Source of the DNA: a virus
Virus record (IMG/VR): IMGVR_UViG_3300036715_000153
Location: 64,001 to 128,000 of that record
Strand: one strand, 5' to 3'
Length of the DNA: 64,000 bases
Under the pieces are notes generated by a model, which ran no database searches, was not told the DNA's origin, and saw only the letters and a program-made list of their open reading frames with translations. Shown here in pieces: positions 12,368 to 51,890 of the stretch (position 1 is the stretch's first letter; every line of letters starts with the position of its first letter). The position numbers and the translations under genes were made by a program.

Positions 12368-13813
12368 TTAGTTGACGTTATGCCAAACTATTCCACCACG
12401 AACTTCTGTTTCTGGTTCGTCTCTCGCCATCGCAATAGATAGTATCTGTGGTAACATATCGTGTGCTAGTCTATCTTTATATGCAGCTAATACTGCCGCT
12501 CTCGCATCGCTGTTGTTGAGCGATTTAAAATATTCTTGAGTTGTAGCCCAAGCAAATAACACGATCGTCATAACCATATCGTCGTGTGCATTATCGTCTG
12601 CCTCGTACGAAGATCCTTTACTAATAAACGTAGAGAACTCTGAAATCGTCGCTTCGTCGTTTATAATAAGCAAGTCTGACTCGATAATCTGTTTTGCATT
12701 CGAACAACCGATGCGCTTCGTACGCTTGTCTGTCCTCAATCCGTTCTGCTGTTGCATTGATGCACCAGACATTAACTGTTGTCCGTGTTTAGTAGATTGC
12801 CCTACCCACGCAACGTTCTCGTAACCAAACTCATATACTAGCGTATCTGCGACTTGTTTACCCGTAGACTGAATCTCAATCAATACAAATGCTGTGTTAT
12901 ATTTAGTTGCAGTTTGATATATGAAGTCCGGGAATACCATAGGATTCATTCTATTATTCTTATACGTTGCGACCTGATTATACGGTTTAGCCGTAATGTC
13001 TATTACGCTGAATGCAGACGAATCCCCACCCACACCTTCAGAGCAGTCGACTGTCATCATGTATTGGTGACCTTCAATCGGGGATTGGTATATTTTTAAA
13101 TTGTTATGAATTAGTTCTGGATTAGCGTGTACTAGCTTGCGTAGTGTTTGTGAGTTTAATAGCGTACCAGATGAACCGATAAACTCTGCACCAAACTCTT
13201 GGTCGAACGTTTCTTGACCAATGTTAGAAATCGTATCTGCTTTCCATTTCTCATCTCTACCCGGTACGTCCCACCAGTTGATAGAGTTGGCTACGAACAG
13301 CGAACGTTTTGACTCCGCGTCTACCCACAGCTTATAGAAATGATTCAGACCTTTGGGTGTAGACACCAAGATAACCTTAGTTTCTTGACCAGATGAAATA
13401 GTGGGATATACTGAGTCCCAGAACTCTGCCCACTGAGTGCCCATGATAAAAGCTACCTCGTCTACAAACAGCAGACTGATGGACGTATTGTGTGAAACTA
13501 TTCCGTTGGCATAATATTTATTATCTTTAACCACGAATGCAGGATCGTACATCTTCTTACTACAGTTTATAATAGTTTTACTCGATACTTTACTTATACC
13601 CGATTCTGTCACTAACGCTGCACCATTGCGAATAGATGATGCCTTTTTCCATCCTCGATCAGTCATTAACGGGTGGTTGGGAGTTACTTCTATAGAATTA
13701 CCATTGATTGTCTCGAATTTAATAGTTTCGTCTGTGTCATATACAGCGACACCCGAAAAATCGGACCACCCGTCTGGTGTAAGTATTTCCCAATCGGTGT
13801 TATTTAGAAACAC
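12368..13813 (-). CDS. terL: Terminase large subunit, C-terminal half, fused to a C-intein
   Basis: After the intein (...GIVSHN): TSISLLFVDE (Walker B), VSTPKG, QEFGAEFIGS, and nuclease residues MTVDCSEG and HDDMVM. Confidence 0.95.
   Translation of the reverse strand: MFLNNTDWEILTPDGWSDFSGVAVYDTDETIKFETINGNSIEVTPNHPLMTDRGWKKASSIRNGAALVTESGISKVSSKTIINCSKKMYDPAFVVKDNKYYANGIVSHNTSISLLFVDEVAFIMGTQWAEFWDSVYPTISSGQETKVILVSTPKGLNHFYKLWVDAESKRSLFVANSINWWDVPGRDEKWKADTISNIGQETFDQEFGAEFIGSSGTLLNSQTLRKLVHANPELIHNNLKIYQSPIEGHQYMMTVDCSEGVGGDSSAFSVIDITAKPYNQVATYKNNRMNPMVFPDFIYQTATKYNTAFVLIEIQSTGKQVADTLVYEFGYENVAWVGQSTKHGQQLMSGASMQQQNGLRTDKRTKRIGCSNAKQIIESDLLIINDEATISEFSTFISKGSSYEADDNAHDDMVMTIVLFAWATTQEYFKSLNNSDARAAVLAAYKDRLAHDMLPQILSIAMARDEPETEVRGGIVWHNVN
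13487..13813 (-). other. C-intein (109 aa) of an atypically split intein
   Basis: MFLNNTDWEILTPDGW; block B TPNH; block F MYD; block G SHN followed by +1 Thr. Confidence 0.9.
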
Positions 13814-13926
13814 GAATCCGCCCGAGCTGGTAAGAAGTTAACTAACAAGTCGTGACGGTCATGCATCACTTCCCCGTGATTTACATCGATCGACAGCTTA
13901 GTTATGTAAAATGATTGAGTCATCAT
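13804..13926 (-). CDS. 40-aa bridging ORF overlapping the C-intein start
   Basis: AAGGAG RBS; MMTQSFYITKLSIDVNHGEVMHDRHDLLVNFLPARADSCF*; its last codons overlap the GTG at 13813. Confidence 0.45.
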   Translation of the reverse strand: MMTQSFYITKLSIDVNHGEVMHDRHDLLVNFLPARADSCF

Positions 13927-13988
13927 TGAAATCTCCTTTATCTTTGGTGCATAAAACGTAACAGTCTTTAGCTGTTACGATGTAGCAC

Positions 13989-14139
13989 CTATCCCTGATT
14001 TAAAATATACTGTTTTACTGTCTCCGTTGATGCTTGTCCAGTCGATGCTACAAAATATCCATTAGACCAAAAAGTTCTTTCTTTCCAAAAATATTTAGAA
14101 AGATCAAAATGTTTCCAAATTTCAATAGTTGTTTTCCAT
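13989..14139 (-). pseudogene. tnpA: Internally deleted Y1 transposase
   Basis: ATG GAA AAC AAC TAT joined out of frame to KTTIEIWKHFDLSKYFWKERTFWSNGYFVASTGQASTETVKQYILNQG*, the TnpA C-terminus with the YIxxQ catalytic Tyr. The HUH region is missing. Confidence 0.85.
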
Positions 14140-15329
14140 AATATATTATTTAGTGAAATATATTTTCAATTTATAGTGAAATATTAAAAATGATAACTAA
14201 ATAGTAGTATGGAATTCAAAGCATACAAATTCAGAATATACCCAACAAAGGAACAAGAGAAAACTCTTGCTAAGTTCTTTGGTGCCAAACGATGGATTTT
14301 TAATCATTATCTTCACGAAAATAAACAACGCTTTCAGAATAAAGAAAAGCACCTTTCTAATTTCGATATTAACTATGATATTACAACTCTTAAAACATTA
14401 GAAGAAACTTCTTGGTTAAAAGAAATTGATTCTATATTACTACAGAACGCCAGTGAAGATTTACACACTGCATATTCGAATTTCTTTAATTCTATAACTG
14501 GTAAACGTAAAGGTCCTTCTATTTCGATCCCTAAGTATAAGTCGAAATATGATAAACAATCATATCGTACTCGCGGTGTAAAGGTGAACTTCGACGATAA
14601 TATAATAACTTTACCAAAAATTAAGAAAGTCAAGGCAGCTATTCATCGTAAATTCACTGGTAATATTAAATCATCGACAGTTTCAAAAACTGCATCTGGT
14701 CAGTATTATATTTCAATACTCGTTGAGGAAGATATTAAACTACTTCCTGCATCTGGTATCGAAATTGGTATTGATCTTGGTATCAAAGACTTGTGTATTT
14801 TGTCTAATGGTATCAAGTTTCAATCTCCTAGAATATTACTAGCAAAAGCCACGCTAGAATTAAAGAAGCAACAACGTAAACTAAGTAGAAAGCAAAAGAA
14901 TTCTAAAAATAGAGCCAAGCAGAAAATTAAGGTAGCTAAAGCATATCAACGAATAACAAATATTCGTAATGCTTACTATCACGAAATTTCTAATTATCTC
15001 GTTACGAATTTCGATGCAATATACATGGAAAGTCTCAATGTAAAAGGAATGCTAAAGAATCGTAAATTAAGTAGATCAATTCAAGAGTCTAGTTGGTCGA
15101 CATTAGTTAATATGATTCAATATAAAGCAGGATTTTACGGTAAAACTTTTCATCAAATTGGTAGATTTGTTCCTTCGACAAAAACATGTTCGTGCTGTAA
15201 TCATAAATTAGATTCGATTTCTCTTTCTACTAGAGAATGGTCTTGTCCGGTGTGCAATACACTTCACGACAGAGACCTGAATGCAGCATCGAATATTAAA
15301 AATTTCGGTCAATTAGATGTATATGATCG

Positions 15330-16560
<1,231 letters not shown>

Positions 16561-46186: not shown

Positions 46187-48942
46187 AACGGGATTTAGGA
46201 CCAACACCAACAATATTCTTCATCGGTATCGTCGAAGATAGAAACGACCCTGAAGAGCTGGGTCGCGTCAGAGTCAGAGTGTTTGGACTACACACAGAAT
46301 CTAAAGTAGACATTCCAACTAAAGACTTGCCTTGGTCTCCAGTTATCATGAGCTCGACTAATCCAGGTAAGTCTGGTGTAGGTTGGTCGCCTAATGGCTT
46401 AGTGCCAGGATCTAAGGTAATCGGGTATTTCTCAGATGGCGCCGCTCAACAACAATATGTCGTCCTCGGGTCGCACTTAGGCATTAACGATGATGTTTAC
46501 GGCGGGCCGCAGTCGGCGATACCCGCAGCAGATGCTAAGTCCCCTGCGGTTGTTAATGCTGCTAATCCAGCGACATCTACAAATCGCGTAGATGCAAATG
46601 GTAATCCTTTACCAGACGGAGTCGCGCAAGATCCAAATACAGTACCCAGAGAAAATGCCCCAGAGGTTGTTACTGTTATAATTCCGCCTTGGAAGCTAGG
46701 CCAATCGTCTATATCATATGAAACAGAACGTAGATCTCCCGGAGACATCACTATAGTAGATGGCGTAGCATTCTATGGTAAGTGGATGTTTAGTAGCCAA
46801 ACTGAAGATTTAAAGTCTTATGTTAAGGTGTGCCCATATACAGTTGAGTTCGGTGGTCTGGATGTACCGGGAACCCAGTTTAATTATATCTGGGGCAACT
46901 TGGGTAAAACGAATACGACTGAGTTTGCTGACGATCAATATGACTATGTTAAGAAAACTGTATATCAAAAACTGATTGCCAAACTCGCTCACGTTCAGAT
47001 GTCCGAACGAGGCAACGGAGTGCAAGATTGTATCTGGGCTACTTCTGTTTTATATGGGGTTACTGGTGGACTGAAAGTTGTTAATAGAGCACTCGCCGAT
47101 AAAGACCTGACTGAGATTACCGACGTCGATATCGTAACGCTTATCCAAGACGATAAAGTTCGTAATATTGCAGAAGACTTTAAAGGTAAATCTACAGATG
47201 GACTCGCAGCTAGGTTTGCTGCAGAAAAGTCTGCGATGCTCCTGTTATGCGAAGACGTTGCTACGCCAGACTTACCACCGACACCTGTACCTGCTACAGA
47301 TATATACAAACAACCTATAATTAAACCTCTACCCGCGAATACAAGAAAAGAACCGACAGAAGATAAAGAGCCCGCAGGTTTTAAAGATCCTAAAGGAGTA
47401 TATCCTAAGAAGTTGTATAAGGGGGCGGCAGATACCAATCATCAAGCAAGAAACAAGTCTAGTATCACAGGCACTGCTACCGATGCAAAGTCTAAGTCTA
47501 TACTAAGTAACGCTGGCGAACCGGCTTCTCCATACAAGGCAAAGTATCCATATAATAAGGTATATGAATCTGAGTCTGGTCATGTTATAGAAATCGACGA
47601 TACGATAGGTGGTGAGCGAGTCCACGTGTATCATAGATCTGGGTCATATATAGAGTTTTATCCAGACGGCACGATCGTAAAGAAGTCGGTTAAAGACGAC
47701 ACAGAAATAGTTCTTAGCAATAAGTCTGTATATGTCGTAGGTACGTGTAATATTACTGTAGAAGGCAACACTGCTGTGAAGTGCATGGGAAGTATAGACA
47801 TCCAAGCTAAAGATGACATATCTATGATGGCAGGTGGCAATATTTCTATTATGGCAGGTGGCGATCTTGTAGCAAGCTCTGCCCGTAACAGTAACTTCCA
47901 GGCGGGTAAACAAGCTTCTATGGATGCTCCTAAGATCGTACAGAACGCCGGTGCTGCTGGTGCAGTCAAGATAGATATCGGCAGTAAGATAGAAGCACAG
48001 ATGGCTATGGCAGAACAAACAGATGCGGGGCCCGATGATTCTCCAGACGACGAGCCAGATATATCTGCAGAGCAAGCCAAGGCTGATTTTGAAAAGAAGA
48101 ACGGATATAAGTTACCGACAGACCCAGCAAATACAGCAACATTCAAAGACGAGCCTATCGTAGAAAAGGTTATGACTGTTAGTATATCTAATTCCAATCC
48201 ACATACAGTTACGATAGATGCGGATAGCGTATTAAAGTCTACAGATGGACTGGTCGTGGGTCAGACGTTGTCTGGTACAGGGATTCCTAAGGGAGCATCT
48301 ATCGCTTCAGTAATAGATACGTCGACGTTCACTATAGATAAAGATGTTACTAATTCTGTCGTCTCATCTATCGCATCGTTTGGTCCGCCTGTTGCGAAAC
48401 ATGTAGTCGTCGAAGTTGCACCTACTTCGGGACCATACACACCAGCCTACCAGTTATCTGAGAACGTAACTATTAAAGACATGACAGCAACTCCTGTATC
48501 TCCGTTTAAGCTGGTTGCTCAGGTGGGACTAACAGAAGATCAAATTGTGCAGAATATGAAAGCAGTCGCGGTTAACGTAATCGAGCCGGTTCATAAGTTA
48601 ATGGGTGCCGGTAAATACGCGATCACCAATGCTTTACGAAACGCTGTTGGTGCCAAGTACCCGTCAGACCACCACTTCGGGTCTGCCGTAGACTTCCAAT
48701 TCCCGGGGATTGCTGCTACAGAGATTATCCATATAGCTAAGAAGATATCCGATATATTGCCGGCATACCATCAAGTTATTTTAGAGTACCACGCGAATGC
48801 CCCGGTAGTTCATATCGCTTATCGCTTACCCGGGCATCCTCGAGGCGATAATAAGAAGACTACGCATACTGCGTTCAAGACCCCATTTACAGGAATGCCT
48901 CGCGGCTTCTGTGATAAGAACATGAATTTAATTTACCCGTAA
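46183..48942 (+). CDS. gp5: Baseplate central spike with a muramidase-like domain and a C-terminal M15 peptidase
   Basis: OB fold GIVEDRNDPEELGRVRVRVFGLH; YPYNKVYESESGHVIEIDDT; beta-helix repeats; SDHHFGSAVD. Confidence 0.92.
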   Translation: MKRDLGPTPTIFFIGIVEDRNDPEELGRVRVRVFGLHTESKVDIPTKDLPWSPVIMSSTNPGKSGVGWSPNGLVPGSKVIGYFSDGAAQQQYVVLGSHLGINDDVYGGPQSAIPAADAKSPAVVNAANPATSTNRVDANGNPLPDGVAQDPNTVPRENAPEVVTVIIPPWKLGQSSISYETERRSPGDITIVDGVAFYGKWMFSSQTEDLKSYVKVCPYTVEFGGLDVPGTQFNYIWGNLGKTNTTEFADDQYDYVKKTVYQKLIAKLAHVQMSERGNGVQDCIWATSVLYGVTGGLKVVNRALADKDLTEITDVDIVTLIQDDKVRNIAEDFKGKSTDGLAARFAAEKSAMLLLCEDVATPDLPPTPVPATDIYKQPIIKPLPANTRKEPTEDKEPAGFKDPKGVYPKKLYKGAADTNHQARNKSSITGTATDAKSKSILSNAGEPASPYKAKYPYNKVYESESGHVIEIDDTIGGERVHVYHRSGSYIEFYPDGTIVKKSVKDDTEIVLSNKSVYVVGTCNITVEGNTAVKCMGSIDIQAKDDISMMAGGNISIMAGGDLVASSARNSNFQAGKQASMDAPKIVQNAGAAGAVKIDIGSKIEAQMAMAEQTDAGPDDSPDDEPDISAEQAKADFEKKNGYKLPTDPANTATFKDEPIVEKVMTVSISNSNPHTVTIDADSVLKSTDGLVVGQTLSGTGIPKGASIASVIDTSTFTIDKDVTNSVVSSIASFGPPVAKHVVVEVAPTSGPYTPAYQLSENVTIKDMTATPVSPFKLVAQVGLTEDQIVQNMKAVAVNVIEPVHKLMGAGKYAITNALRNAVGAKYPSDHHFGSAVDFQFPGIAATEIIHIAKKISDILPAYHQVILEYHANAPVVHIAYRLPGHPRGDNKKTTHTAFKTPFTGMPRGFCDKNMNLIYP

Positions 48943-48954
48943 GGAGAACATCGC

Positions 48955-49506
48955 ATGAAAGAACTATCTGGGCTACACGAATCTATCAGACCTAAGGCCG
49001 AGAAGCTAATTCAGTTAGCTAAAGAAAGATTCGACCTTGTAATTAAGATTACTATGACTTTGCGTACTAATAAAGAGCAAACTGCACTCTACGCTAAAGG
49101 TAGAATGTCATTAGTTGAAGTTAACAAGTTGATGAGGATCGCAGGACTTCCTGAGATAACTGCAAAAGAAAACATAATCGTAACCAAGGCATCTTCGGTA
49201 GATACGTCTTTCCATGGCTATGGTATGGCGTTTGATATTGCTGTGTTTGATTCCACTGGTAAGATGGTTAAGTGGGACGATTCGTCTGATTGGAACAATG
49301 ACGGCATTAACGACTGGGCTCAAGTTGGATCGCTGGCAGATGAATGTGGTCTTGAGTGGGGAGGTAACTTCTCTGCTATCCCCGATAAACCGCACTATCA
49401 AGACCGCATGGGTTGGACGATAGCGGCACTCAAGTTGGCTAAGATTCCAGCGGGCGAAGTGTATGTTGGACTACCGTACAATACACCAGCAAAATCAATG
49501 ACTTAA
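48955..49506 (+). CDS. Endolysin, M15C (L-Ala-D-Glu) peptidase family
   Basis: LRTNKEQTALYAKGR, SFHGYGMAFD, GLEWGGNF, DKPHYQ. Confidence 0.9.
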   Translation: MKELSGLHESIRPKAEKLIQLAKERFDLVIKITMTLRTNKEQTALYAKGRMSLVEVNKLMRIAGLPEITAKENIIVTKASSVDTSFHGYGMAFDIAVFDSTGKMVKWDDSSDWNNDGINDWAQVGSLADECGLEWGGNFSAIPDKPHYQDRMGWTIAALKLAKIPAGEVYVGLPYNTPAKSMT

Positions 49507-49569
49507 AATTAAATAGCATTATTTGAGTGCTTTAATACGATTTTAACGTGTAAAGATGTGTAATCGTGG

Positions 49570-49594
49570 AAAAACGGCATTTATGCCGTTTTTT
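49570..49594. terminator. Bidirectional terminator
   Basis: AAAAACGGCAT-TT-ATGCCGTTTTTT between convergent genes. Confidence 0.7.
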
Positions 49595-49622
49595 GTGTTT
49601 ATTAATCAGTGACTTACAACCA

Positions 49623-49793
49623 TCAATTTCCTGTTTGTATAATAGTAACTGGGCCGTGTCCTGCAGTTACATCTTCCCTAAACACTTTACGCTGAATAGC
49701 CACATACTCAACAAAAGTCATCGGTGTTTTCTGTCTAGACTCCAGCGTGCGTACGTAGCTAATATAACCTTCGTTGTAGAATTTGTCGTTCAT
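49623..49793 (-). CDS. Small early protein (56 aa)
   Basis: MNDKFYNEGYISYVRTL...; AAGGAG RBS, its own promoter and terminator. Confidence 0.65.
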   Translation of the reverse strand: MNDKFYNEGYISYVRTLESRQKTPMTFVEYVAIQRKVFREDVTAGHGPVTIIQTGN

Positions 49794-49822
49794 TGTGTAA
49801 TCTCCTTTAAGTTTGTGTAGTG

Positions 49823-49851
49823 ATTATACATTACATTTCAAACAAAGTCAA
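49823..49851 (-). promoter_or_regulatory. Early sigma70-type promoter
   Basis: TTGACT-17 nt-TATAAT followed by CACTACA. Confidence 0.75.
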
Positions 49852-49867
49852 CCTATTTGTATGCGTG

Positions 49868-49895
49868 AAAAAGCCCAACTTAATGGGCTTTTTTT
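49868..49895. terminator. Rho-independent terminator ending the enzyme operon
   Basis: AAAAAGCCCA-ACTTAA-TGGGCTTTTTTT. Confidence 0.8.
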
Positions 49896-49896
49896 A

Positions 49897-50937
49897 CTAA
49901 GCTACGTAGTTCTTTACCATTGTTTGCCAGCCTTCTTGTCCTTCATAAGCTGCACACACCTTTAATGCGTTAACTAGCGTTCTCATGTTAATGCGGTTTT
50001 GCTTACCGCCAGACTCTTGAATAAATTCAAATACTTCTTGTCTGAGCTTATTGCTAAGTTGTAGATTCTCAGGTAACTCGATCTTATTAACGAGCGAACG
50101 CATTACTTCTAGCATCTCGTCTTTCGTAGGATTAATCTCCATAACAAATCCACGAGTACGAATAGCACCATCTGGGTCTAACTTCTTAATACTTACGTTT
50201 GCTACGAGAATAATCCCGCCTTCGAAGTTAAAGTATCTTGGTAACTGCTCTCCGCCTTCTTCCGGCTCTTCTTGGAAAGCTGGATCGTAATAGTTACCGC
50301 CCTTCTTGTTAAAGCTGATCTTACGAGTCTTACCGGAATCGGTTGCTGCCTTAATCATGTTACGAACTTCTGGGTCATTCATCAGAGTGTCACACTCATC
50401 AAACAGTATAATCTCTTTGCGGTGGTTGAATAACGTTTCGTATGTTGCTGCGGCAGATCCAGCACCGACTGTCTTAAAGTATCCATCACCATCAGATAGT
50501 CCCGCTGCTCTCATCTCAGACTCTAGGTTATGAGTATTGTGATGTAATACTCCTGCTGCGTCGTAGTAAACATGTTCGTTGCTATCTACAGAAATATCAT
50601 ACAGGTCTACAATTTCATCAGAAACAGCAACTTCGGCGACAACCTCTGTAGAATCTTTACCAAGAACTACGTTACCAAACACTAGATTGGATGCTTTAAC
50701 TGTGTCGTTTGATTCAGTCACAAACATATGACTGCAACCACAATTCACTACCTTACCGGAGTCGAACGTAACAGTGCAGAGTTTATCTTGTTTGCGAATA
50801 AATCCAGATATTGGTTTGTATCCGGTTGGGGTATTTGTTTCTAGTCCAAGAGATTCTATATTATATAGATAATCCAGTTGGGGTTCGGTAATGTTATACA
50901 GGTCGAGTACCTGTAATTTAATGTCGTTTAAGTTCAT
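49897..50937 (-). CDS. AAA+ ATPase, C-terminal half, fused to a C-intein
   Basis: C-intein ends VLHHN; then THNLE, Walker B IILFDECD, sensor VAN, Arg finger AIRTR. Start ATG 50937 or TTG 50967. Confidence 0.88.
   Translation of the reverse strand: MNLNDIKLQVLDLYNITEPQLDYLYNIESLGLETNTPTGYKPISGFIRKQDKLCTVTFDSGKVVNCGCSHMFVTESNDTVKASNLVFGNVVLGKDSTEVVAEVAVSDEIVDLYDISVDSNEHVYYDAAGVLHHNTHNLESEMRAAGLSDGDGYFKTVGAGSAAATYETLFNHRKEIILFDECDTLMNDPEVRNMIKAATDSGKTRKISFNKKGGNYYDPAFQEEPEEGGEQLPRYFNFEGGIILVANVSIKKLDPDGAIRTRGFVMEINPTKDEMLEVMRSLVNKIELPENLQLSNKLRQEVFEFIQESGGKQNRINMRTLVNALKVCAAYEGQEGWQTMVKNYVA
50536..50937 (-). other. C-intein (134 aa)
   Basis: TPTGYKPI, CGCSH (block B), LYDISV (block F), HVYY...HHN followed by +1 Thr. 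Confidence 0.9.
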
Positions 50938-50999
50938 AAGCCTCTTCTTTAGCTGTCTGTTGTTCAATGTATCTTGGCGAGAAATCCCACGTATATCTT

Positions 51000-51044
51000 T
51001 TAATTAGATGTGCGTATATCTAATTCGGTGTCTTGGCGTAAACA
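51000..51044 (-). other. N-intein, 14 aa
   Basis: CLRQDTELDIRTSN* directly after Walker A GPGGTGK. Confidence 0.8.
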
Positions 51045-51890
51045 CTTACCTGTTCCGCCGGGGCCCGTAAGCATTAATAGATTAGTTGCACCAGACTTAA
51101 TCAGTCTTACAAATCCACGTAGATGTTGTAGTTGATCTGCGTACGCAACCTTCTCTGCTTCATCTTCTAGATCGTTCGTAGAACCAGGTGTGATGTCTTG
51201 TTCTTTAGCCATAGACTTAGATACGCGAACTGTTGCACCGCCTGCTGCTTCCAGTGCCTTAGCGTAGTCAATCTTAGACGGGCTGCCGATGAACACTGGG
51301 GATTTACCAGACGTATCAAATACAGATGGGTTAGTTTCTACGATTACTTGGAACAGTTTAAACTCTGGACGTCCAAGTGCTAACTTAACTTCTCGATAAC
51401 CGATCTTATCTCCAACATTCATCTTAGCTACGTATGCGCGAATGTTGTCTGCGATCATCGAAGACATTTCATTCAATACTTCTGCTTCGGTTAACTCAGA
51501 CTCGTTTACATCGACTGGAACGAAGTCGAACTCTGCTACGCGAGGAGTTTTAAGGATGTCGACGATCTGTGGCAGGATCTTAACGATAGATACGCTGTGG
51601 TCGAATGTAACATCGAACTTAGTATCTTTGTTCTTCCATATAGTAATCGAATCTAGTACATCTTGATTTAATGATTTACCCAGCCAGTTAAACCGGACAC
51701 ACGAGTCCGTCTTATAAAAGAAACGCACACCTGTAAACGTTTTGCCTGCAACCATAAACGTTTCGTATCCAGGCATACGATGGAAAGTCTGACCGACTCT
51801 TTTAGTTAAATACTTCTGGATTAGTAATGCGACGACGTGAACGTCTTTAGCGTTCACTGCCTCTACTAGGTAGTCACTGTATGATTTCAT
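51000..51890 (-). CDS. AAA+ ATPase, N-terminal half, with capsid-targeting-like N-terminus
   Basis: MKSYSDYLVE start; LMLTGPGGTGK then intein Cys1; late motif at 51917-51924. Confidence 0.85.
   Translation of the reverse strand: MKSYSDYLVEAVNAKDVHVVALLIQKYLTKRVGQTFHRMPGYETFMVAGKTFTGVRFFYKTDSCVRFNWLGKSLNQDVLDSITIWKNKDTKFDVTFDHSVSIVKILPQIVDILKTPRVAEFDFVPVDVNESELTEAEVLNEMSSMIADNIRAYVAKMNVGDKIGYREVKLALGRPEFKLFQVIVETNPSVFDTSGKSPVFIGSPSKIDYAKALEAAGGATVRVSKSMAKEQDITPGSTNDLEDEAEKVAYADQLQHLRGFVRLIKSGATNLLMLTGPGGTGKCLRQDTELDIRTSN

Follow-up and report, generated by a model that had tools for sequence, protein, structure and literature searches.

Is a phage ATPase gene that stops 14 codons after its Walker A motif, and that resumes as a separate gene 62 nucleotides (nt) further on, a broken gene, or does it carry a natural split intein with a very short N-terminal piece? 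This question is raised by a locus in positions 64,001 to 128,000 of IMG/VR virus record IMGVR_UViG_3300036715_000153, a stretch of 64,000 nt that we call the window and to which all coordinates refer; the split ATPase locus is read from its minus strand. A previous reading of the letters alone (the sequence-only reading) had described there the motif GPGGTGK followed by CLRQDTELDIRTSN and a stop, 62 nt of spacer, a C-terminal intein fragment (IntC) of 134 amino acids (aa) that ends in HHN before a Thr, and a product of about 494 aa, and translation confirmed each of these elements. In our opinion, the element is very probably a genuine class-1 intein with an atypical split of the S1 type, which interrupts a phage AAA+ ATPase in its P-loop.

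The open reading frame (ORF) of the N-half runs through ...GATNLLMLTGPGGTGK (the LTGPGGTGK end), continues with CLRQDTELDIRTSN, which would be the N-terminal intein fragment (IntN), and is closed by TAA. IntN and IntC belong to separate ORFs, since this stop is followed by an independent translation start with a ribosome-binding site of its own. At its other end, IntC finishes in HHN and is followed by THNLESEMRAAGLSDGDGYFK... (THNLESEM), in which the Thr is the +1 residue. Both ORFs are full length and have zero internal stops in translation. Joining the two exteins (282 + 212 residues) with removal of 14 + 134 residues gives a predicted spliced ATPase of 494 aa with the P-loop sequence GPGGTGKT.

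The nature of the interrupted site is best appreciated from alleles of the host gene in which it is empty. The closest relative of the host gene, P0002, is a partial protein without intein that is 74–77% identical to both halves (about 75%; 77% over the C-extein), and it reads across the insertion site as an uninterrupted GPGGTGKTWNLESEM / LLMLTGPGGTGKTWNLESEM, in the wider context ...LLMLTGPGGTGKTWNLESEMQAAG... Another intein-less relative, P0003 (493 aa), has GKGGTGKTYSIEAEM at the same place. Both hold an uninterrupted GGTGKT(W/Y), and the N-extein is aligned to both as far as GTGK; thus, the predicted ligation product corresponds to natural intein-less alleles, residue for residue. Of the 80 IMG/VR loci, 64 are without intein, and the intein-less homologues are about 495–520 aa long.

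The host protein is an AAA+ ATPase. The spliced product carries, besides Walker A, a Walker B motif in IILFDECD, and Pfam AAA_16 gives a weak match. The structural model of P0003, with a predicted local distance difference test (pLDDT) score of 87.7, shows an N-terminal α/β domain followed by an AAA+ module, which is similar in structure comparison to NorQ/MoxR, NSF, proteasomal Rpt, Vps4 and RFC subunits. The exteins belong to phrog_1250 (E = 1.4e-20 for the C-extein). The host protein had been called uncharacterised, and this stands in so far as PHROG annotates the family as of 'unknown function', but the protein is no orphan: phrog_1250 is a widespread phage ATPase family in which many alleles carry an intein. 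Phage GenBank records gave nothing for the window DNA or for the N-half, and for the C-half only remote matches; these homologues, found in many T4-like enterobacterial phages, are annotated as hypothetical, as 'ATP-binding' or, wrongly, as thioredoxin. Scans of IMG/VR with single-sequence patterns for close relatives also found nothing.

For the intein itself, evidence is provided by the sequence, by the family and by the fold. IntC matches Pfam Intein_splicing with E = 4e-4, which is under the curated cut-off, and a single-sequence search against PDB sequences gives the consensus atypical intein CatC as the best match (2.8e-6), together with gp41-1 and VidaL; with the family profile of IntC, the best PDB match is VidaL at E = 3.5e-9. 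The intein signal is well above chance, the single-sequence evidence being modest and the family and structural evidence strong. In the IntC family alignment, formed by 22 sequences, His70 (block B), Asp114 (block F), His133, Asn134 and Thr+1 (Thr135) are invariant, and Cys1, placed directly after GPGGTGK, is aligned with the Cys or Ser at position 1 of the relatives. An AlphaFold model of IntC obtained from this alignment has a mean pLDDT of 93.6, and all the top Foldseek matches of the model are inteins, the best one being the VidaL crystal structure 6vgv; by this model, IntC has the HINT fold. Its first element is a helix at residues 3–14, which places the break in the locus after β2 and before α1; in the contiguous intein of relative L011, the corresponding point lies between residues 14 and 15. 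For VidaL and PolB16, the S1 split site is likewise the one after β2 (PMC13014065).

A further issue is whether other members of the family are split as well. No close relative of the intein was found, and therefore the conservation of the split was tested at the family level (IntC identity ≤38%). Seventeen proteins consisting of IntC and C-extein, of 343–370 aa, span the whole C-half ORF at 37–43% identity. Genomic context was gathered for 21 intein-bearing loci of the host gene, all of them interrupted in the P-loop, and 18 are split, all at the same point; the comparison of homologues for a stop and a restart that the sequence-only reading had proposed thus turned out in its favour at this level. 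Moreover, the IntC genes of the relatives begin at the position equivalent to the ATG in the window. The IntN tails have 13 aa in L010, L012, L014 and L016, in L017, and in L018, L020 and L021, 14 aa in L019, 20 aa in L009 and 29–33 aa in L001–L008. In L001 and L003–L005, among those with 29–33-aa tails, the last part of the tail is shared with the beginning of a free-standing endonuclease gene, so that the conserved IntN core is again about 13–14 residues.

An ORF of 351–455 aa lies between the halves in 14 of the 18 split loci, and in L001 and L003 this ORF scores above the Pfam cut-off for DUF559, a Vsr-like family. The L010 group, represented by four contigs in three metagenome samples, is without endonuclease gene, like the window locus, and has a spacer of 144 nt. 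Its halves are in the same frame with at least two stops between them, which makes a frameshift artefact impossible in that group, and its occurrence on four separate contigs indicates that a split without endonuclease gene is maintained. Judged from the sequences of these loci, the split is a family trait and not an artefact. Altogether, the empty site, the split relatives and the HINT fold support the earlier proposal of a split intein with Cys1 and Thr+1 that would restore GKT in an AAA+ ATPase. The features of the locus are collected in Table 1.

Table 1. Features of the split ATPase locus, with positions in the window.
Feature	Position	Strand	Basis or content
N-half ORF, 296 aa	51890..51003	minus	ORF list and translation; 3' end GPGGTGK, then CLRQDTELDIRTSN
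N-extein, 282 aa	51045..51890	minus	N-terminal domain and start of AAA+ module; last residues Walker A GPGGTGK
IntN, 14 codons (CLRQDTELDIRTSN), Cys1 nucleophile	51003..51044	minus	HINT strands β1-β2; aligned to IntN cores of relatives
TAA stop of N-half	51000..51002	minus	shares bases with IntC-frame TAA (TAATTAA); three-frame translation
Spacer, 62 nt, without endonuclease gene	50938..50999	minus	Shine-Dalgarno-like AAGAAGAGG at 50941-50949
IntC, 134 aa (MNLNDIKLQ...AAGVLHHN)	50536..50937	minus	helix α1 onward; block B His70, block F Asp114, block G His133-Asn134
C-extein, 212 aa, from Thr+1 (THNLESEM...)	49900..50535	minus	remaining AAA+ module, Walker B in IILFDECD, C-terminal helical part
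C-half stop	49899..49897	minus	translation

Before accepting a genuine split, the facts that weigh against it should be considered together. As the sequence-only reading had pointed out, and as three-frame translation confirms from the overlap TAATTAA, no stop codon interrupts the IntC frame between the IntN stop and the ATG of IntC, and a single added T fuses the two frames. The genome is a metagenome assembly, and exact-pattern scans of metagenome contigs found no independent assembly across the junction. Contiguous alleles exist in this intein family (L011, L013 and L015, besides matches of ~650 aa), and no relative above ~39% identity carries the intein allele of the window (HMMER, 1.84 billion cluster representatives). 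Finally, the arrangement AAGAAGAGG-CTT-ATG, with the ATG of IntC at 50937, leaves a gap of only 3 nt between the Shine-Dalgarno core and the start codon, which is short. From these facts, one could propose a contiguous cis-splicing mini-intein in which an assembly error of 1 nt, or a frameshift of very recent origin, at TAATTAA gives the appearance of a split; intein residues 14 and 15 of the single chain would then be joined by 22 linker residues (LKDIRGISRQDTLNNRQLKKRL). We consider this quite improbable. The break coincides exactly with the split point of 18 relatives, and where the IntC genes of the relatives start, the window has a Shine-Dalgarno sequence and an ATG. The site is not a long homopolymer, and 21 open codons are expected by chance ~24% of the time with the local base composition. 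The three contiguous loci, of a kind that had been named beforehand as a possible refutation, were indeed found, with a 151-aa intein in ORFs of 666 aa, but the intein of L011 is collinear with the 14 + 134 residues of the window and has zero extra material at the break, so the 22-residue linker lacks a counterpart. It is the split shared by the relatives, the in-frame stops of L010, the missing linker in L011 and the IntC starts of the relatives that lead us to give an assembly error or frameshift so little credit.

Other explanations accept the split and doubt its function. The locus could be a decaying remnant: once deprived of the endonuclease gene, the split intein would have ceased to assemble or splice, and this phage would have what amounts to an ATPase pseudogene. 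The closest relatives of the host gene, P0002 and P0003, are without intein, and the intein of the window stands on a long and isolated branch, with no close relatives that could reveal purifying selection, which would fit such a decay. In a remnant, however, one would not expect the catalytic residues to be all intact, both ORFs to be full length with a highly confident model of IntC, and the exteins to be 74–77% identical to P0002 over their whole length; thus, we think that decay is unlikely, even if it is the least unlikely of the alternatives. Split-intein halves generally bind each other tightly, and from this general knowledge a two-chain ATPase, held together non-covalently by the intein pieces and without ligation, can also be imagined. 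This is hardly credible, because the cut is between the Lys and the Thr of Walker A and a 148-residue domain would stay in the nucleotide-binding loop, and because the full set of splicing residues is conserved, which is needless for mere association.

With a splicing split intein as the preferred reading, the following course of events can be proposed. The two halves would be expressed as separate cistrons, probably from one transcript; a promoter and terminator scan at the locus gave results no better than shuffled sequence. After translation, the 14-mer would dock on IntC as the missing β1-β2 hairpin, Cys1 would form a thioester that is attacked by Thr+1, and Asn134 would cyclise, as in class-1 chemistry. 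Going by the residues and the fold, the 494-aa ATPase would then be released with its GPGGTGKT P-loop intact, and since the P-loop is cut by the intein, ATPase activity should depend on splicing.

The window locus follows the design of VidaL (PDB 6vgv/6vgw; Burton et al. 2020, cited in PMC13014065), with another gene as its host. Native VidaL loci (n = 4, L086–L089) were recovered with a short degenerate pattern from the VidaL peptide. Their IntN reads ...VFAGESG↓CLPKEAVVQ(I/V)RLTKKG-stop, the arrow marking the splice junction, i.e. 16 aa, in agreement with the length given in PMC13014065, and their IntC ends in SHN↓SGKS... Both inteins have a natural atypical S1 split after β2 and Cys1, and each interrupts a phage ATPase in its P-loop. 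VidaL differs in the lengths of its pieces, with an IntN of 16 aa and an IntC of 123 aa (native locus L086) against 14 and 134 aa in the window, and the two IntC share only ~24% identity (Foldseek). The host of VidaL is a UvsX/RecA-like recombinase instead of the phrog_1250 AAA+ ATPase, and it is interrupted at GESG↓SGKS (between P-loop residues 4 and 5, with Ser+1), whereas the window has GTGK↓T (between 7 and 8, with Thr+1). Splicing has been demonstrated for VidaL, while for the window intein it is predicted from sequence and model. The idea that VidaL might come from the host gene of the window, suggested by the SGK in the crystal construct, was rejected on account of its native recombinase host.

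VidaL is also instructive with regard to the endonuclease. Two of its alleles have an endonuclease gene between the halves, and two (L086/L087) have only a spacer of 58 nt, to be compared with 62 nt in the window. This 58-nt spacer still encodes the last 13 codons of the endonuclease (VECVNSIIKEIKD), which is direct evidence that such cassettes lose the endonuclease and yet stay split. The arrangement with an endonuclease is that of the fractured genes described by Dassa et al. in 2009 (PMC2677866), formed by a split intein and a free-standing endonuclease gene, the 2009 set having canonical split points. Relatives L001, L003, L009, L017, L018 and others follow this layout, with N-half and IntN, endonuclease gene, and IntC and C-half in this order, in phage hosts; unlike most of the split relatives, the window has only its spacer where fractured genes have the endonuclease gene. 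The word 'ATPase' is found nowhere in PMC2677866, and the host ATPase of the window is not mentioned there. We think that the ancestor of the window locus was most likely a fractured-gene cassette, i.e. a split intein with a free-standing homing endonuclease gene, and that this gene has since been lost, as is also observed for certain alleles of VidaL and for the L010 loci. A remnant of the 3' end of such a gene, like that in VidaL allele L086, was looked for in the window: a third frame is open for 33 codons across the 62-nt spacer, but it has no Pfam match at E up to 10, and its peptide gave no convincing alignment with the endonuclease tails of the relatives.

Comparison with other short split inteins, in the case of PolB16 by description only, helps in placing the new one. 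PolB16 OarG, from a sheep-gut metagenome, has an IntN of 15 aa, 'the shortest characterized' (PMC10189870). Like the window intein, it is a natural S1 split with a very short IntN, and synthetic IntN peptides make it attractive for semisynthesis; it differs in being cysteine-independent (Ser1/Ser+1), in its IntC of 168 aa and in its host, a PolB-type DNA polymerase. The AceL-TerL, GOS-TerL and Cat inteins (PDB 6dsl) have IntN of 25–37 aa with an S2 split after helix α1 (PMC13014065). They share with the window the short IntN and phage P-loop ATPase hosts, and Cat provides the CatC match mentioned above, but the S2 instead of the S1 site results in a longer IntN. The engineered Ssp DnaB M86 has an IntN of only 11 aa, with its split at nearly the same place towards the N terminus (PMC13014065). 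Foldseek also pairs its fold (6frh) with that of the IntC of the window, although here the split is artificial and laboratory-evolved, not natural.

How short, then, is the IntN of the window in relation to the natural ones? The lengths given in the sequence-only reading for the shortest of them, 15–16 aa, were correct, corresponding to PolB16 (15 aa, PMC10189870) and VidaL (16 aa, PMC13014065). The natural atypical IntN reported in the literature span 15–37 aa, with the 15 aa of PolB16 as the record (PMC10189870, PMC13014065). The proposal that the window has one of the shortest natural IntN holds nominally, as 14 aa is one residue under the published record, but its own family has still shorter ones: the 13-aa tails in L010, L017 and L018 make the short IntN a family property and not a unique trait.

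The family uses GG↓TGKT and GTGK↓T, two insertion points of one Walker A motif that lie three residues apart, each with Thr+1. The window, L004, L009 and L018–L021 are interrupted between Lys7 and Thr8, and VidaL and most relatives between residues 4 and 5 of GxxGxGK[ST]. In the IntC tree, where the window intein stands on its long isolated branch, the inteins of the GK↓T site have long branches, with weak support on one origin versus two. We lean, with only slightly more confidence than doubt, to the view that the IntN of 13–14 residues (14 in the window, 13 in L010, L017 and L018) are complete and functional, and hence would be the shortest natural split-intein fragments known, and that the same lineage shifted by three P-loop residues, from GG↓TGKT to GTGK↓T, with a Thr again serving as +1 nucleophile.

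The mechanism is not a new one, and the class is already established: S1 split, phage P-loop ATPase host and fractured-gene ancestry, i.e. VidaL-like. The interest is mainly a practical one for protein engineers, and moderate otherwise. Protein semisynthesis and live-cell labelling call for split inteins whose N-terminal piece can be made cheaply as a synthetic peptide, and few natural inteins with short IntN have been characterised, namely VidaL (16 aa), PolB16 (15 aa) and the TerL types (25–37 aa). The locus and its relatives provide diverged natural pairs with N-pieces of 13–14 aa and Cys1/Thr+1, with sister alleles that have Ser1/Thr+1, and such pairs could widen the panel of orthogonal short-fragment inteins. 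In addition, the list of phage genes invaded by split inteins grows by one host, the phrog_1250 AAA+ ATPase, and by a second insertion point in the P-loop, and the locus is probably one more case in which a split intein has outlived its homing endonuclease gene.

Several observations on the family were made along with this. The Ser1 sister alleles in the host gene (SFSGST.../SISGST..., with Thr+1) are those with N-half tails at L001:1784-1963 and L003:1544-1723, the IntC of the former being at L001:2980-3390. They have no cysteine as a splice-junction nucleophile, and their IntC retains non-junction cysteines. According to PMC13014065, no natural cysteine-less intein with an atypical split is known besides PolB16, and the Ser1 alleles could, from their sequences, be further candidates. 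In the IntC tree, the contiguous form of L011, L013 and L015 is nested in a clade of split alleles (support 99/97), which suggests either that split halves became joined again or that splitting took place independently more than once. In the group formed by L018, L020 and L021, a gap of 2.8 kb separates IntN and IntC (L018:1654-4440); an endonuclease-like ORF of 455 aa occupies about half of it, and the other ~1.3 kb has no long ORF on the same strand.

Around the IntN stop of the window, there are direct repeats in mirrored order (50969-51038), one being GT(A/G)TCTTGGCG at 50969 and 51028 and the other CGTATATCT at 50990 and 51013, and an 8-bp inverted repeat (51002-51009 / 51018-51025) straddles the stop codon of the N-half. 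These repeats may be a recombination footprint or a small hairpin. Programmed frameshifting at this place was considered and rejected, since direct reading shows no slippery heptamer at TCTAATTAAAAG.

With respect to the genome, it is a metagenome-assembled viral genome of 140,394 bp in IMG/VR with direct terminal repeats. A contig of 3151 nt from JGI 3300035180 (L090) is 100% identical to window positions 47661-50811 and ends at 50811 inside IntC, from which it follows that the phage of the window occurs in that sample; the same sample also contains L008, a different phage with a Ser1 allele of the intein. The neighbours of the ATPase locus on the plus strand are a gp5-like baseplate hub gene and an M15 peptidase gene, and the upstream neighbour on the minus strand is a nucleotidyltransferase-like gene. 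The large terminase gene is also split (window 12368-16107, minus strand). Its N-half ends in SSSAIRG↓C followed by 37 residues and a stop, i.e. an IntN of 38 aa, its C-half begins with an IntC of ~109 aa that ends in GIVSHN↓TSISLLFVDE, and an ORF of 404 aa on the plus strand (14209-15423) lies between the halves. This intein is of the AceL-TerL/GOS-TerL/Cat type, and thus, with the split ATPase, the genome carries two different split inteins with short IntN.

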